A DNA stretch of 23,440 nucleotides, taken from the IMG/VR virus record IMGVR_UViG_2563366964_000006. One strand, given 5' to 3'. Positions 1 through 19,690 of this stretch are shown in pieces. This DNA comes from a virus. Its lineage: Duplodnaviria; Heunggongvirae; Uroviricota; Caudoviricetes. The notes under the pieces are model-generated. The model was not told the origin of the DNA and searched no databases. It saw nothing but the letters and a program-made list of their open reading frames with translations. Made by a program: the position numbers and the translations under genes. Every line of letters starts with the position of its first letter. Within the stretch, counting starts at the first letter, position 1.

Positions 1-399
1 ATGCCAAATACTGTAATCGACAGCTGGTCCGGTATGGTGTTTTTGAAGTTCAACGGGGCGAAATTTTCTGCCACTGATTACCCTGTGCTGGCGAAAGTGT
101 TTCCTTCGCTGGTATTACCTGAAGCCCGCGGTGATTTCATTCGTATCTGGGATGACGGGCGAGGTGCAGATGGTGGTCGCGAATTATTAAGCTGGCAGGA
201 AGCTACAAACTTTTCTCAGTTTGCCGGGAATATAGGCGGAGGTGCGGGACACGCAATTAACTTTCATGATGGCATCGCCGGAAATCAGCCAGGATTTTCA
301 CGATTTAATTTCACCAGTAACTCTGTGGGTGATGGTGTGAATTTTGTTGCTGTCAGACCGCGAAATATTGCATTTAACTTTCTGGTGAGGGCTAAATAA
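1..399 (+). CDS. Alternative tail-fibre C-terminal (receptor-binding) module, S'v-like; probably has no independent start in vivo
   Basis: 132-aa ORF with a tail-fibre collar-type motif (LPEARGDFIRIWDDGRGADGGRELLSWQEA resembles the LPDLRG-F-RGWD-GRG-D-GR signature of Mu S / P2 H-type fibres). Opposite strand to the main fibre gene; stop overlaps the next ATG (TAATG at 397-401). Family call from memory, no search. Confidence 0.5.
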   Translation: MPNTVIDSWSGMVFLKFNGAKFSATDYPVLAKVFPSLVLPEARGDFIRIWDDGRGADGGRELLSWQEATNFSQFAGNIGGGAGHAINFHDGIAGNQPGFSRFNFTSNSVGDGVNFVAVRPRNIAFNFLVRAK

Positions 400-992
400 T
401 GAAACCTGTTTTTGATGAAAATGGGCTGGCTACAGTGCCGGGCGATATGCGTTGTTTTTATTATGATGCAGTAACGTATGAATATACGGGCTGGTCTGAT
501 GAATATATTAATACTGGTGTAAGTATGCCCGCCTGTTCCACTGGTATTGACCCGGGCGAAAACATTCCGGGAAAAGTGGCAGTATTTACGGGTAAGGGAT
601 GGAGCCATGAAGAAGACCATCGCAATGAGACTGTTTACTCAACAGAAAATGGTGCAGCTGTTACAGTGGATTATATCGGTGCCATCAAAGACGGTTATGT
701 CACGCTTTCACCGTTAACGCCATATGATAAATGGGATGGTGAGAAATGGGTGACCGATACTGAGGCACAGCATAGCGCAGCAGTAGACGCGGCAGAAGCA
801 CAGCGCCAGTCGCTGATTGATGCTGCAATGGCTTCCATCAGTCTGATTCAACTGAAATTACAGGCCGGACGGAAGCTGACGCAGGCAGAAACAACCCGAC
901 TTAACGCCGTGCTGGATTACATTGACGCGGTGGCGGCAACAGATACCAGCACTGCGCCGGATGTCATCTGGCCTGAACTGCCGGAGGCGTAG
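399..992 (+). CDS. Tail fibre assembly protein (U'-like chaperone of the alternative fibre)
   Basis: 197 aa; C-terminus ...DTSTAPDVIWPELPEA matches the conserved end of phage tail-fibre assembly proteins; immediately follows the fibre-tip ORF with start/stop overlap. Confidence 0.7.
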   Translation: MKPVFDENGLATVPGDMRCFYYDAVTYEYTGWSDEYINTGVSMPACSTGIDPGENIPGKVAVFTGKGWSHEEDHRNETVYSTENGAAVTVDYIGAIKDGYVTLSPLTPYDKWDGEKWVTDTEAQHSAAVDAAEAQRQSLIDAAMASISLIQLKLQAGRKLTQAETTRLNAVLDYIDAVAATDTSTAPDVIWPELPEA

Positions 993-1404
993 GCCATTCA
1001 ATATCTGGCGCACCGGAAGTATCGACCAGTTCCAGTGTGTCCAGATAATCCAGCCACAAATTATATTGCGCCAGTTCCTCACCTTTCAGGCGACCAATCG
1101 CCGCTTTACCAGGCCATTGCTTACTGTTTATGTATTCGTTGACCTGATTAATCAATTGCTGCTTTTCCAGTTCGGCTGCGGCAATTTGTTCCTCATGAGT
1201 TGGCGGTGGAATATCAATCCATGCAGGCATTCCGTCGATGACGCCTCTGTATTTTCCTTCTGGTGCTTCCTTCATAAATTCGGCGGCAACAGTGTCGTCA
1301 ATTTCGATTCCATCACCGGGCCATTCGCCGGATTCCTGATAAGCGATTTTAAGCTCCACAGGGAAAAACGCATTTTTATCGGCACTGAAAATATATCTCT
1401 GCAT
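964..1404 (-). CDS. Tail fibre assembly protein (U-like)
   Basis: 146 aa; C-terminus ...VDTSGAPDIEWPTPPAVQAR carries the same conserved motif; ATG at 1404 lies 2 nt after the fibre gene stop; 3' end converges on and overlaps the opposite-strand assembly gene by 29 bp. Confidence 0.7.
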   Translation of the reverse strand: MQRYIFSADKNAFFPVELKIAYQESGEWPGDGIEIDDTVAAEFMKEAPEGKYRGVIDGMPAWIDIPPPTHEEQIAAAELEKQQLINQVNEYINSKQWPGKAAIGRLKGEELAQYNLWLDYLDTLELVDTSGAPDIEWPTPPAVQAR

Positions 1405-2719: not shown

Positions 2720-3783
2720 AGTAATCCAACCTCCACATTACCGAGTCGAAGCCACTCCACTTTCTCCTCATTGACGACCGGGAAGATATTGGCTGCAGGC
2801 GCGATAAATTCGCGGTCAGTAATTCCTGGAATCAGTGATATCAGTGTCCCGGCCTGGCTACGGATAAACGGCACGGCAGGGTCACGGCGACTGTCGTCAT
2901 CCTGAAGAGAAGCGATAATTTGCGTAGTAGCATCGGCTAGTGTCAGACCATCCAGAGATACCTGGACTGAAACGTCAAAATTGACAATGGTCGGGGCAAT
3001 AACCAGGGCGTTCTTAGCCGTCACCGGGCGTACGTCATCAATATGAGCCTGAGTACGATCAATAACATCCTGAGACGGCAGACCACCGGCAGAGGTGATC
3101 ACAATATCAACGGTGCCAAGACCCCGACGCAGAGGATAGACATACGCAGCTGATACACCTGCAACTTCAAGGGCCCAGCGCTTATAGTCATATTTATTGC
3201 CGCCTGCAGGCGGTCGGCGAATAACATCGAGTAAACGGGCCAGTAACTCAGCATCAGTCTCTTCGTCAGTGCCACCAGACATCATCCCGACGGTCACCGT
3301 ACTGTCGAGGCCCGATGGCGTCGTGCTGAGAATGGCAGTGGTGGTTGAGGTTGTATTACCGGCGGTGCCTTTTGCCGACGAGACAGCATTAACAGTGCCT
3401 TTGCCATCGGCTCCGATGGTCAGTTCCGCTGTTGTTGTCCATGCCTGGCTGTCACGCTTAAAAACTAACCCTGCTGCTGCTGTCGTGTTGGGCTGTCCGG
3501 TAAAGGTGGCAGGACCAGAAGCGCTGTTAGCGGGTTTCTTGGTAAGCCCTCGGGTTCTCGCGTGAAGGTAGAGATACTCAGCATCAGCGGTATCCGGGAA
3601 AATCTGACGAACAATCCAGCCCTGATGCTGGTAAAGCCCCTCGGCAACACTTGCAACACTGGAGGCGCGAACGAACCAGTCGCTGTCTTCACCCAGTTTA
3701 TCGTCAGTCAGTTGCAGCTGGTTTTTAATATCACGCAACAGCTCATCGCGGATTTGTGCTGTTGTTTTAGTAACGAAGGGCAT
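2716..3783 (-). CDS. Baseplate J-like protein (Mu gp47-like)
   Basis: 355 aa; typical size and N-terminal character of Baseplate_J proteins; synteny. Confidence 0.75.
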   Translation of the reverse strand: MPFVTKTTAQIRDELLRDIKNQLQLTDDKLGEDSDWFVRASSVASVAEGLYQHQGWIVRQIFPDTADAEYLYLHARTRGLTKKPANSASGPATFTGQPNTTAAAGLVFKRDSQAWTTTAELTIGADGKGTVNAVSSAKGTAGNTTSTTTAILSTTPSGLDSTVTVGMMSGGTDEETDAELLARLLDVIRRPPAGGNKYDYKRWALEVAGVSAAYVYPLRRGLGTVDIVITSAGGLPSQDVIDRTQAHIDDVRPVTAKNALVIAPTIVNFDVSVQVSLDGLTLADATTQIIASLQDDDSRRDPAVPFIRSQAGTLISLIPGITDREFIAPAANIFPVVNEEKVEWLRLGNVEVGLL

Positions 3784-4133
3784 CAGCTCACCTTAACCGG
3801 ATATTTCCAGGTCTGCGGTGAAACACCGGCAGACGTAACAGTGATAAGCAGCAGGAGCCAGCCTGGCTGATAGCGTTCTGCCGTTATATCAATGGATATG
3901 GCCCTGCCATCGTCCAGCATAGGCTGAAGCGCCTGCTCTGCGTACTGGCGGGCGAGTTTACGCACGCGAGGCGTATCTTTTTCCCGCTGTAGCGTGTGCA
4001 AAAGTGACCCCAGTGATGGTGCCGCCCACCATGAGCCAAGCGGCGTCATTAACCGTAAATAAACGGCATTGGCCAGGGAGTCAGTGCTGTCACCGGTATA
4101 GTCGCCGGTGACTGGGTCAATTAGCATTTCCAT
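3783..4133 (-). CDS. Mu gp46-like baseplate protein
   Basis: 116 aa; first gene after the 4134-4227 intergenic gap; stop overlaps the J-like start; synteny with Mu-like baseplate modules. Confidence 0.6.
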   Translation of the reverse strand: MEMLIDPVTGDYTGDSTDSLANAVYLRLMTPLGSWWAAPSLGSLLHTLQREKDTPRVRKLARQYAEQALQPMLDDGRAISIDITAERYQPGWLLLLITVTSAGVSPQTWKYPVKVS

Positions 4134-4163
4134 GCCGACATAGTATCGGCAATGGAAATAATG

Positions 4164-4191
4164 TAAGAGTTGAAGGGGTTCAGTGGGTTAA
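4164..4191 (-). promoter_or_regulatory. Conserved motif (minus strand TTAACCCACTGAACCCCTTCAACTCTTA), candidate late-promoter / activator-binding element
   Basis: 17-bp core GTTGAAGGGGTTCAGTG (plus 4169-4185) is identical to 15957-15973; contains a TGAA-N4-TTCA dyad; ends 35 nt upstream of the ATG at 4133; lies in the only intergenic gap of the tail/baseplate gene block. Confidence 0.4.
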
Positions 4192-4227
4192 TTAGTTTCA
4201 GAAAGGTAAACAGGAAAATACCACAAA

Positions 4228-4815
4228 TTACATCAGCTGATTAGGTTTATCCGTAGTTCCTGCATCGCCACCATGCTCGTGGTCATGGTCGTCATAAGTT
4301 TCACGTACCTTATTGAGCGTGGATGTACCGTCAGCAAGGTCATTCGTTGCTTTCAGAAGCGGTGTATCGAAGTTTGCTTTATTTGTCGCGTTGACATCAT
4401 AGTCGGCGGTATTAACTGAATATTTATTTTTGGCATTCACGATAAAATCATCGCAATTAGCCTCAATAATTTTCCCGCGTTTAAGAACAATATTGCAGCC
4501 TTCATCCGTATACAGTGCAACTTCTCCCGGTTTCAGTTCTTTCAGACGATAGCGGCCATGCTCCGTCGCAATAACAATACCGTGGCTGGTTTTACCGTTA
4601 ATTGGTAACACGACCGCCATCGTGCCAGGTAGCGGATTAGAGGTGAAACCATAATGCTGAAAGAGTTCTATATCCTGTAACGGTTCAGGGCCAAGCCCCT
4701 TGCCCTGAATAGTCTGCGCAGGCCCCGCGCTGTTAACGCGAGTTATTACGCCTCTGAATGCGTTTCTGATACGGTTTAAAGCCATATTAATCCGCTGATC
4801 CACTTTATTCCACAT
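4228..4815 (-). CDS. Baseplate assembly protein V-like / spike (Mu gp45-like); start revised to the ATG at 4815
   Basis: Track ORF 4228..4947 overlaps the upstream gene by 143 nt; internal ATG at 4815 has GGAGA 7 nt upstream and begins MWNKVDQRINMALNRIRNAFRGV, typical of gpV-type proteins. Confidence 0.65.
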   Translation of the reverse strand: MWNKVDQRINMALNRIRNAFRGVITRVNSAGPAQTIQGKGLGPEPLQDIELFQHYGFTSNPLPGTMAVVLPINGKTSHGIVIATEHGRYRLKELKPGEVALYTDEGCNIVLKRGKIIEANCDDFIVNAKNKYSVNTADYDVNATNKANFDTPLLKATNDLADGTSTLNKVRETYDDHDHEHGGDAGTTDKPNQLM

Positions 4816-6010
4816 CAATAATCTCCAGCTTTTTATTAACCTTAGCGCGGCTTTTACGCAGTTTGCGTTTTTTAGGATAAGCATCGGGTATCCAGATACC
4901 ATCCTCTTTAAGCCTGAGCGTGGTGACGGTGTTATCGGGGCGGCCACCGCTAAATTCCCGGCCCATCAGAAAGAAAATATCGTCGATACCATGGGGCTCG
5001 CTGCGTACACGAATACGCTGACCTGGAGCCCAGAGCTTGCCGCTCTCCATGCGATGACCTTTCACTACAGCGGTTAACTCATAACCACTGAGCCGGGCAT
5101 CTGCCATGGCTTTTTTAGCCCGATAGTCAACCTGCGCCTGGTTATCAGCATCACCCACAACCATGATTTGAGGTCTGTAAAAGGAGACACTCGGGTCACG
5201 AACGACACTGCGGAGACCATGGAAACCACTCTCGGGGGAACCAACCGTCGTCAACAGGTCATTGTCACTGTCGTCGTCACCATCATCACTGTAAACATCG
5301 ATAATCTCAGTCCCTGAGGAAGACTTAGAACCCTGAGCGTGTCCCTGAGCCAGTACGGTCAGTTCGGAAAAAGAGCCATTCACAGATGAGCGATCGCTGA
5401 GGTCGAGAATATTATTCCCACGGCCATCACGGTTAAGCACCAGAGTAGCCACCGGGTCGGCCGTGTAATCCGGACCACCGATAACCAGCGTGCCGTCAGG
5501 CTCAAACCATGGCCAGAGCCCTCTGGCGGCAGCGGCGCGTTCCAGAGTGTCCCAGGCTCGCTCCCCTGGCTCAACGCTGACTTTATCGCTCTGCATCGAC
5601 GACTCAGCCTGCAGACGGATATTTCGTACCCCGAGCGGCCTGACCACCTGAGCGATAACTTCTTCCAGGCTCAGTTGACGGGAGGTGAATACGGGAGATG
5701 CGCAATCCACAAGGACGGCAGAACCATCGCGGCCAGAAATCCCCAGAGATACCTGCTGGCGTGATACGCGACGTTGAATAGTATCCACACGACCGGACAT
5801 CACTACGTCATCCCCTACGCGAACCAGCACAGGCACGCCCCGCGCAATTGAGGCCGGGAATACGCCATCAGGTAGCCCCATCGTCACACTCCAGGCGTCA
5901 GCGGGCACCAGAAAATCAGAATCAATCTGATAACGACTCCAGGAACTGTGGACTTTGCCATCAATAATCAGGCTCACCTTGTCCTGCGAGCTTTTATCTT
6001 GAGTAGGCAT
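4805..6010 (-). CDS. Baseplate hub protein (Mu P / gp44-like)
   Basis: 401 aa; size and position downstream of the DNA-circularisation gene; synteny. Confidence 0.75.
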   Translation of the reverse strand: MPTQDKSSQDKVSLIIDGKVHSSWSRYQIDSDFLVPADAWSVTMGLPDGVFPASIARGVPVLVRVGDDVVMSGRVDTIQRRVSRQQVSLGISGRDGSAVLVDCASPVFTSRQLSLEEVIAQVVRPLGVRNIRLQAESSMQSDKVSVEPGERAWDTLERAAAARGLWPWFEPDGTLVIGGPDYTADPVATLVLNRDGRGNNILDLSDRSSVNGSFSELTVLAQGHAQGSKSSSGTEIIDVYSDDGDDDSDNDLLTTVGSPESGFHGLRSVVRDPSVSFYRPQIMVVGDADNQAQVDYRAKKAMADARLSGYELTAVVKGHRMESGKLWAPGQRIRVRSEPHGIDDIFFLMGREFSGGRPDNTVTTLRLKEDGIWIPDAYPKKRKLRKSRAKVNKKLEIIDVE

Positions 6011-16184: not shown

Positions 16185-16327
16185 TTCCCCCGTTAATCGA
16201 ATGAGCCCCCCGACGATATCGCCAGGGCTTTTTAAACCCCTTTTAAAAACGATTAACAGGGGATGAGGCGAATCACTCTACCACATTTGCGATAAACGCG
16301 TCTGCGTGGCTTACAGCGCCGTTACGC

Positions 16328-18123: not shown

Positions 18124-19690
18124 TGAGTCGCCCCCAGACCTCACTCACGAACAATGCCTGGTGCAGCAGCTGCCGGAGCATCGAATCATCGAGCTGTGGA
18201 TAGCTGGCGGCGATAATGTCCATCGCCTCATCAGGCGTCTGGCCTTGTTGCAGCGCAGCCACTAATGGGGTGATCAGCTTTTCCATCGCCAGGTTAATGG
18301 CGGCACCTGGCTGAAGGGAGTTATCCAGCGCCTCCTGTGCAGGGTCAGTAATCTCACCGGTACTGCTCAGCGCAGTAAAATGACGGAACGGAGAAGCCGC
18401 TGCCTGAGTCGTCAGTGCCTGTAACGAAAGCGGCGAGGCCGGAGGCGTCAACACGGCTTCATTGTCTTTCGGTTCCGGGATACCAATCTTTTTATGCACC
18501 CAACTGACCGGGATAGTCTTCATCCCCGCACCAACCAGCTTTGATACGCCCTCGGCGAAGACCTGGATATTTTCCAGCTCGCGGGTATCAAAGACCAGTC
18601 TGGGCTGGCGGCGTGGGCTGACATCGTACCCGTTAATCGCCAGTAACATGCGAATAACTCCCCGATAAAAGCCCTCTATCTGGCGAGCATCAGCGGTCAA
18701 CAGGTCATGGCGGACCTCATTGTGTACAACGCCCAGCGCGTTGGTTGAGGACTTACCGTCCGCCTGGGAAGTCAGCGTGCCACCGAGGATAACTTTTGAT
18801 TCAGTGCGCTCAGCCCAGCTAATCATGGCCATAAAGGGATCAGACTGGCCGTTCGCCGCTTCCTTAAACTCAATTTTGGCCCCTTCGGGAATAATACCAG
18901 AGGCATTATGGCCAAGCGTGACAAGCGCCTCCATCAGCTTGTCCTGCTCGTCCTGCGTGGCCCCGGCGATATAAGTACCGATACGCGCGGGCAGACCGTA
19001 TATCTCCAGGAACTCGGCCAGGTCACGTACGCTGTAGTTTTTGAAGAGGTACGGCCAGACCAGCACGCGGTACAGGCCGGACTGGGCGATATAGCCAGAT
19101 TTAGCATTGTGCGTATGGACCAGCCAGCCGAACGGCCACAGTTCTTCGCCGTCCATCGACCCATTATTCAGCCGGATTTCATCACCTTTATCCGGGGTGG
19201 TGCAGAACCAGCGATGCGGGCGTAACTTGATTCGGGTAGGCAACCACAGATTCCCGTCTCGCTCCCACTTCTCAATCTCCTGAGCGGAAAAACCGTGGCC
19301 AATCGCCTCGGCCGCATTGAGAGTGATATCTTCCATTTCCTGCAGGTCAGCAAACCAGCTCGCCACCATTGCCGCCAGTTGCTTCTCTTCGGCGGTGGCG
19401 TTCGGCGGCGGTTCGATACTCCAGTCCAGCGTCAGCAACGCATTCTTGCGTTTGGCCATCTCAGAGAAAATATGGCCGTCCCGCTCAACCATATCTTCGA
19501 AGAGGTCTGCCTGGGCGGAAATATCGCCGCGCTCAGCCGCCTCCAGGATACGAGGCAAACGGGCGATCGTCATTCCGCGTGAGGGATGCGTCGGCCAGTC
19601 CCGGTTCAGCTGCACGGTGCGTGCGGTCTGAGGGGCTTTCAGCACGTCTTTGTTGAGCGGGCGACCATACTGGTCAAGGATTTGAACCAT
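18110..19690 (-). CDS. Portal protein (Mu H-like, DUF935-type)
   Basis: 526 aa; ATG at 19690 with GGAGG upstream, 3 nt after the large terminase stop; canonical terminase-portal-F order. Confidence 0.85.
   Translation of the reverse strand: MVQILDQYGRPLNKDVLKAPQTARTVQLNRDWPTHPSRGMTIARLPRILEAAERGDISAQADLFEDMVERDGHIFSEMAKRKNALLTLDWSIEPPPNATAEEKQLAAMVASWFADLQEMEDITLNAAEAIGHGFSAQEIEKWERDGNLWLPTRIKLRPHRWFCTTPDKGDEIRLNNGSMDGEELWPFGWLVHTHNAKSGYIAQSGLYRVLVWPYLFKNYSVRDLAEFLEIYGLPARIGTYIAGATQDEQDKLMEALVTLGHNASGIIPEGAKIEFKEAANGQSDPFMAMISWAERTESKVILGGTLTSQADGKSSTNALGVVHNEVRHDLLTADARQIEGFYRGVIRMLLAINGYDVSPRRQPRLVFDTRELENIQVFAEGVSKLVGAGMKTIPVSWVHKKIGIPEPKDNEAVLTPPASPLSLQALTTQAAASPFRHFTALSSTGEITDPAQEALDNSLQPGAAINLAMEKLITPLVAALQQGQTPDEAMDIIAASYPQLDDSMLRQLLHQALFVSEVWGRLNAES

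Follow-up and report, generated by a model that had tools for sequence, protein, structure and literature searches.

The cI mRNA that phage lambda makes from PRM is leaderless; it starts at the A of the AUG and carries no Shine-Dalgarno (SD) sequence. The transposable elements IS10 and IS50 use what has been called fold-back inhibition, in which a hairpin blocks translation of the transposase in read-through transcripts. In phage T4, gene e, soc and I-TevI are covered by long early or read-through transcripts in which a helix closes over the SD sequence or the AUG; the transcripts made from the late promoters, which lack the 5' strand of that helix, are translated (PMC3014915). In phage Mu, the C protein is reported to occupy a dyad whose centre lies at -43.5, and the promoters concerned have a -10 element but no -35 (PMC2582627, PMC12867686); the consensus of the dyad, TTAT-N5-6-ATAA, is given in PMC12867686.

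The DNA analysed here, a stretch of 23,440 nucleotides that we call the window, covers the late region of a transposable prophage of the Mu type, in which every late gene lies on the minus strand. It carries a motif that stands ahead of two late operons and is most likely the docking site, predicted from its sequence and spacing, of the prophage's own Mor/C-type late activator. The element is a widespread variant of the known Mu late promoter and not a new kind of element; what surrounds its start codons would combine features of several of the systems above.

The repeated dyad and its genomic setting

Among the genes of the window, Pfam recognises gp45 (4228-4947), GP46, Baseplate_J, gp48 and the Mu I protease, as well as G, F, the T capsid protein, DUF1804 and tail-fibre chaperones. 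The start codons of the gp46-like and I-like genes (Table 1) are well supported because homologues align from residue 1. A complete, near-identical prophage was found in public assemblies (L162, with 2 differences from the window in 10,862 bases), and another prophage (L082) is identical to the window. In L162 the gene order runs from a repressor through Ner-like, MuA, MuB and GemA genes to one Mor-family gene, a 152-aa ORF and a GH19 endolysin, after which the window follows; at the right end of the prophage, a tail-fibre inversion segment and a resolvase are succeeded by host genes. Copies of the prophage sit at differing chromosomal sites, which fits an active transposable phage. Its host belongs to the enterobacteria but is not E. 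coli, and DNA searches found neither a close phage nor a copy in E. coli. A search of the window against Rfam gave no match.

Two neighbouring regions deserve brief description. Window positions 1-1404 form a G-segment-like invertible region of convergent tail-fibre and chaperone genes, with 964-1404 on the minus strand and 1-399 and 399-992 on the plus strand, and a Gin-like resolvase lies just beyond the window (L169:12926-13486). The tail-fibre chaperone is common to unrelated P2-like prophages, and looking it up gave unrelated mosaic phages. Between G and I there is a conserved A/T-rich element on the minus strand (CGTTTTTAAAAGGGGTTTAAAAAG, window 16226-16258); in related phages, 32 of 44 distinct G-I gaps contain the pattern TT[TA]AA-N3-16-TT[TA]AA, against 0 of 44 control coding stretches. 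In phage Mu a similar sequence, TTTTTTAAAACG...TTTTTAAACC, lies just right of the annotated strong gyrase cut site, and the element may be the equivalent of that site. A 69-aa ORF on the minus strand (window 15975-16184) is placed between the A/T-rich element and the I promoter. It encodes a hydrophobic helix, has no match in Pfam or PHROG and is called as a gene in some assemblies only; its TAA stop falls within the TTAA that precedes motif copy 2, and its slot is the one where Pseudomonas Mu-like phages have anti-CRISPR/aca genes.

Table 1. Features of the two late-operon heads in the window
Feature	Position	Strand	Description
gp46-like baseplate wedge gene	3783..4133	-	Pfam GP46 3e-19; PHROG 180 baseplate wedge; ATG 4131-4133
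Mu I-like protease/scaffold gene	14802..15920	-	Pfam Mu-like_Pro 2.5e-94; ATG 15918-15920
Motif copy 1, 18-bp core CACTGAACCCCTTCAACT	4168..4185	-	Exact repeat; PWM 24.7 bits
Dyad of copy 1, TGAACCCCTTCA	4171-4182	-	Centre about -43.5 from A of ATG
Motif copy 2, 18-bp core	15956..15973	-	Exact repeat; dyad 15959-15970
Hairpin of copy 1, UAUUUCCAU-u-GCCGAUA/CUA/UGUCGGCAUGGAAAU	4125..4160	-	16-bp stem with one bulge
Hairpin of copy 2, UGGUGCUG/UACGCU/CAGCACCA plus outer extension	15915..15947	-	-15.1 kcal/mol, z = -4.1
Predicted -10 hexamer TACTAT, copy 1	4140..4145	-	26 nt after dyad; 6 nt before ATG
Predicted -10 hexamer TACGCT, copy 2	15928..15933	-	26 nt after dyad; 7 nt before ATG; coincides exactly with the hairpin loop

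The first-pass annotation of this DNA had singled out the minus-strand sequence TTAACCCACTGAACCCCTTCAACTCTTA as one of two copies of a repeated motif, and it is indeed found at 4164-4191. The core shared by the two copies is identical at both, as claimed, and measures 18 bp (CACTGAACCCCTTCAACT) rather than the 17 bp first given. It is the sole 100%-identical repeat of that length in the window; both copies are on the coding strand, one upstream of the gp46-like gene and the other upstream of the I-like gene. No third copy of the core occurs within the window at up to 4 mismatches, and shuffled sequences led to an expectation of 0.10 matches for a 17-mer at up to 3 mismatches. The internal dyad TGAA-N4-TTCA ascribed to the core is present. 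Likewise, the distance from core to ATG differs by one base between the copies, although the absolute values are 34 nt (copy 1) and 35 nt (copy 2) where 35 and 36 had been given, a matter of counting convention. The flanks of the two copies are unrelated and fail to align, so that the motif stands as a discrete element; a longer duplication containing it would have told against the original proposal. The gap that holds copy 1 (4134-4227, 94 nt) is the only sizeable one among the baseplate genes, much as had been described.

A further copy had been expected upstream of the lysis genes, and one is there: ACTGAACCCCTTCAACTTATT (L162:9053-9066) lies 716 nt past the end of the window, in an 81-nt gap ahead of the endolysin gene. 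When the whole prophage was scanned with a position weight matrix (PWM), exactly three boxes scored at least 23.7 bits (lys, I and gp46) and the next best reached 11.8 bits; the early region and the part beyond gp48 held no high-scoring box. One box stands at the head of each of three operons: lysis/head, I and baseplate.

To place these sites among relatives, we used a comparison set of 166 related loci, which come from Gamma-, Beta- and Deltaproteobacteria and include Pseudomonas phage DMS3; the sheath protein served to fetch 80 related genomic loci, and the large terminase 80 viral contigs. The dyad recurs ahead of the same genes across related loci, with GGAA-N4-TTCC replacing TGAA-N4-TTCA in Gallionella-type phages. 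It is kept ahead of gp46 homologues in about 35 loci and ahead of I homologues in about 38, its end lying 35-39 nt from the ATG. Across 2.98 Mb of related loci, the coding strand has 100 matches of at least 18 bits and the other strand 1, and the genes downstream of such matches are I (51), endolysin (28), gp46 (19), N (5), mor (3) and gp47 (1). The symmetry of the dyad is itself maintained: among 65 distinct boxes, each of the outer four pairs is complementary in 69-100% of cases, position 12 is a C whenever position 1 is a G (14/14), and in three loci (L050, L061 and L073) the box is a perfect palindrome. In more distant phages the gp45 stop is coupled to the gp46 ATG and the motif is missing there; the module is found ahead of N instead.

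Phage DMS3 (L173) has the module twice, at 10209-10263 and 18984-19039. The first copy heads an un-annotated 115-aa ORF (10261-10608) directly after DMS3-19, a gene whose product resembles a Mor homologue by eye and is annotated as an integral membrane protein. The second heads gene I, whose ORF starts at 19037; the annotated start at 19163 makes the gene 126 nt too short.

Promoter geometry, start codons and hairpins

Several features point to a promoter of the Mu late type. A -10-like hexamer, nAnnnT, begins at +26 or +27 after the dyad in all site classes and is present in 72 of 74 distinct sites. At lys sites it reads AATACT in 12 of 13 cases; all 43 I sites have a TAnnnT-like version, and the gp46, N and gp47 sites have the hexamer too. 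Given a 12-bp dyad, this spacing puts the dyad centre 31.5 bp from the hexamer, and we measured the same 31.5 bp in Mu Pmom between the centre of TTAT-GCCCCA-ATAA and TAAGAT. The predicted hexamers are weak (TACGCT, CACACT). A -35 element is absent. A sigma-70 consensus scan of the coding strand was empty at both copies, and a terminator consensus scan of the same strand found none at either copy.

The prophage has one Mor-family gene (L162:8157-8591), located two genes upstream of lys and the first box. Its product matches Pfam Mor (3e-10; 40.5 bits against a cut-off of 24.9) and PHROG 836, 'late transcriptional activator' (1e-38), and shares 27-29% identity with Mu C and Mor in their C-terminal parts. 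The 152-aa ORF between mor and lys was considered as a second C-like activator and rejected. An intrinsic terminator (GGCGGGA...TCCCGC followed by TTTTTT) occupies the interval between gemA and mor (L162:8086-8156), where a Mor box is absent.

The proposal that the two copies mark a shared activator-dependent late promoter thus gains support from the dyad, the fixed spacing to the -10, the missing -35, the Mu-like choice of operon heads and the single Mor/C-family activator, and on these grounds the motifs are very probably Mor-type late promoters. We infer that the prophage's Mor-family protein would bind the box. In two viral contigs (L137:5158 and L156:7142) the dyad and AATACT stand ahead of mor itself, which suggests positive autoregulation of the predicted activator. 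The predicted start there falls within the 5' arm of an intrinsic terminator (AACACC...GGTGTT and a T run), so that upstream transcripts would terminate and promoter-initiated ones would not.

From the hexamer to the ATG there are 6-7 nt at 66 of the 67 distinct sites that precede I, gp46, N and gp47. As transcription from sigma-70 promoters normally begins about 7 nt past the hexamer, +1 would come to lie on the A of the ATG. We also looked for an SD core in the region from -16 to -5. None of 37 I sites and none of 4 N sites had a 4-base core, and of 19 gp46 sites 1 had it, as against 300 of 443 (68%) other starts in the same phages; even a 3-base core was missing from all 37 distinct I-class sites. 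Both window genes lack an SD sequence, as had been remarked for the gp46-like one. The short gap and the absence of an SD together lead us to predict leaderless mRNAs, with starts that probably fall at window 4133 and 15920. The very short or structured leader proposed earlier would then need refining: its length is probably zero nucleotides, and it would not be structured, since the promoter's own RNA would have no 5' arm. Leaderless mRNAs are usually translated poorly in enterobacteria, which makes their use by structural operons odd; the genes downstream have SD sequences of their own.

The hairpin noted at the start codon of copy 1 (gccga-N7-tcggc, 4134-4150) is real, but it is only the tip of a larger stem (Table 1) that takes in the ATG and the next 5 bases. 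The full structure has a predicted energy of -19.1 kcal/mol (z = -6.0), and none of 200 shuffles was equally stable. At copy 2 the 3' arm takes in the A of the ATG. The lys copy has a 10-bp hairpin directly after the -10 AATACT, and its 3' arm holds the SD and abuts the ATG. As read-through RNA this sequence folds at -20.7 kcal/mol (z = -6.5), versus -3.9 kcal/mol (z about 0) for the RNA from the predicted start (L162:9104); at lys sites the predicted start lies inside the 5' arm.

Similar structures are found in the relatives. Median z is -2.7 at I, -4.95 at gp46 and -5.4 at lys, whereas 20 other starts taken from these loci have a median near 0. Pairing involves at least one base of the ATG at 31 of 37 I sites, at all 19 gp46 sites and at 11 of 13 lys sites. 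The stem sequences vary between sites and between phages, the constant feature being a 3' arm that abuts or contains the start codon. Neither RNAalifold on 48 ATG-anchored sites nor a two-end-anchored register scan yielded a consensus structure. Because the stems float by 1-3 nt between loci, there is no column-wise covariation statistic to be had, and we therefore relied on per-sequence z-scores and control gene starts.

In the hairpins at I and gp46, it is the apical part that holds the -10 hexamer. The whole 5' arm would therefore be left untranscribed by the predicted promoter, and the structure would act only on RNAs begun upstream. Whether the hairpins do serve as occluders of read-through RNA, as this layout would allow, we regard as evenly balanced. 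No terminator is predicted between gp45 and gp46. Read-through into gp46 would come from another late promoter, so temporal insulation offers no obvious explanation there; protection of a randomly inserted prophage from host read-through, or independent dosing, are guesses at a purpose. Nor is the hairpin obligatory, since the gp46 sites of some Chromobacterium loci (L015, L016, L022, L029 and related ones) do without it. They have the dyad, ACTGACCCGCTTCC, at the usual distance, and the hairpin is replaced by CCCGGAAAATAACGCC-ATG (..GGAAAATAACGCC-ATG, with GGAAAAT in the hairpin's place), possibly to be read as a GAAAAT -10 hexamer or a weak SD.

A proposed mechanism and its alternatives

The explanation that we favour, and consider reasonably likely as a whole, joins Mor/C-type late promoters to leaderless starts and to a hairpin that locks read-through RNA. 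A dimer or tetramer of the single Mor/C-family activator would bind the dyad CTGAACCCCTTCA about 43.5 bp upstream of the start point and would bring sigma-70 RNA polymerase to a weak -10 of the form nAnnnT, unaccompanied by a -35. At gp46 and I, transcription would start on the A of the ATG or no more than 1-2 nt from it, giving a leaderless mRNA. The GC-rich inverted repeat that straddles the -10, with the ATG in its 3' arm, would pair only in longer, read-through RNAs; in these the start codon would be locked, making translation of the operon head dependent on initiation at the activator-dependent promoter. The endolysin copy would follow the same logic with a 24-nt leader, its -10 AATACT standing directly before the hairpin.

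The same promoter could instead start upstream of the hairpin, in which case a structured leader would throttle or regulate translation of its own mRNA. The strength and conservation of the hairpins fit this idea, as does the fact that leaderless mRNAs for structural genes would be unusual. We nevertheless think it unlikely, because no conserved -10-like hexamer exists between dyad and hairpin, a stretch that is variable and C-rich, and the sole conserved nAnnnT is the one at +26/+27, inside the hairpin or at its tip. A start above the 5' arm would moreover put the dyad centre near -25, unlike any Mor/C promoter, and internal initiation would need the SD that the I and gp46 genes lack. If the dyad acted as RNA, in an RNA switch like that of Mu Com and mom, a stem-loop (UGAA-CCCC-UUCA) bound by a phage protein would open the start-codon hairpin. 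Mu is annotated with a translation-inhibition structure for mom, and RNA prediction allows the dyad to fold as a 4-bp stem, but a stem of 3-4 bp is too weak for a stable RNA structure. The distance of the dyad is fixed to the -10-like hexamer and not to the hairpin, which at lys is about 24 nt further off; com and mom are absent, the prophage ending after the Gin-like resolvase; and a gene for a DNA-binding activator of the Mor family adjoins the first box. An RNA switch is for these reasons very improbable.

Alternatively, the inverted repeat might work as DNA, either as a repressor operator or as a supercoil-driven cruciform that gates the -10. Its position astride the -10 hexamer at the I and gp46 sites would suit such a role, but at lys sites it lies downstream of the -10, across the leader. 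The stems differ among the three sites of one phage and among phages and so offer no common operator, and what is constant is the 3' arm at the start codon (and at any SD), a translation-related feature; a DNA-level role is accordingly quite improbable. The last alternative, that the motif is a -35 of the ECF sigma type or else a chance or duplicated repeat, is extremely improbable. TGAAC and GGAAC do resemble ECF -35 cores. However, the half-site is 25-32 nt from the hexamer and not 16-18 nt, which effectively refutes an ECF -35; the motif is a dyad, and the gene list of the prophage includes no sigma gene. Chance is excluded by the shuffle, mismatch and strand-bias counts, and duplication is contradicted by the unrelated flanks.

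It is possible, though we put it at somewhat below an even chance, that a large clade of Mu-like phages heads its late operons with a three-part module, a Mor box, a -10 within a hairpin and an SD-less ATG at +1, that leaves outside transcripts translationally dead. If so, the clade would take in enterobacterial, Burkholderia and Desulfovibrio prophages and the Pseudomonas phages DMS3, JBD30 and D3112, and late proteins would be translated only from activator-initiated leaderless RNAs. The silenced transcripts would include host read-through, early and middle transcripts and those from strong moron or anti-CRISPR promoters. Some members of the clade would play the same trick at mor, using an intrinsic terminator placed in front of the gene. 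Mu-like prophages of this kind form a very large group with poor annotation, for which this amounts to a testable late-promoter model that specifies box, -10 hexamer and +1. Leaderless operon heads, as predicted, would also explain wrong or missing start annotations such as those of the DMS3 I gene and the 115-aa ORF after mor, and DMS3, where the module shows up two annotation errors, is a ready experimental system. According to the Aca1 literature as relayed in PMC9410906, strong upstream transcription into the I region of JBD30-type phages is harmful; hairpin occlusion would offer a mechanism for that harm.

Comparison with known systems

The literature that we searched does not describe the box, leaderless late operons or the -10-in-hairpin layout for Mu-like phages, which is not proof of novelty, and searches on the motif string, on leaderless Mu-like late promoters and on D3112 start sites returned nothing relevant. 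We rate the finding as Mu late promoters combined with occlusion of the T4 gene e type.

The closest relative is Mu itself. Its late promoters likewise have a Mor/C-family dyad box 31.5 bp before a weak -10, centred at -43.5 and lacking a -35, in only 3-4 copies per genome, and with boxes that precede lys and I and another within the baseplate block (Plys, PI and PP). The position of the module ahead of N in the more distant phages is close to that of PP. The box here, by contrast, reads CTGAACCCCTTCA or CTGA-ACCCCT-TCA where Mu has TTAT-N5-6-ATAA or CCATAACCCC; a PWM built from this box found no match on the Mu late promoters, and the only likeness to Pmom is the N6 geometry and the C-rich centre. 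The difference in sequence argues for a different specificity. Mu also differs in its two-step cascade of Mor and then C, where one Mor-type gene is found here, and in the placement of its baseplate promoter inside N rather than ahead of gp46. Its late genes have leaders and annotated ribosome-binding sites, with about 9-28 nt from -10 to ATG, unlike the I and gp46 genes here, which are predicted to have neither leader nor SD.

The hairpins have counterparts in Mu (L081). Plys (1445-1495) has a TAGACT-GCCATCA...TGATGGC hairpin over the ATG (-13.9 kcal/mol), and PI (9019-9070) a CTGCTCA...TGAGCAG hairpin over the SD (-14.7 kcal/mol, z = -4.9); in both, the 5' arm begins at or just after the -10 hexamer. 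No mention of these hairpins was found in the literature searched. Their presence suggests that Plys and PI use the same start-codon-occluding layout, and from this shared layout it can be argued that the design is ancestral to the group.

Of the systems outside Mu, T4 gene e is the nearest, and the endolysin copy here would be a near-exact analogue of it. T4 relies on gp55 and gp33, however, whereas sigma-70 and a Mor-type activator are predicted here, and two of the three sites of the prophage have the -10 in the loop together with a predicted leaderless start. IS10 and IS50 resemble the present case in that a transposable element shields a gene from outside transcription and the 5' arm of the hairpin lies upstream of the start of the element's own promoter; the shielded gene is a transposase there, and here phage late genes behind an activator-dependent promoter. 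With lambda cI the prophage shares a predicted start at the A of the AUG and the lack of an SD, but the genes concerned here are the heads of late structural and lysis-region operons, and the predicted starts are accompanied by an occluding hairpin and conserved across a large phage clade.
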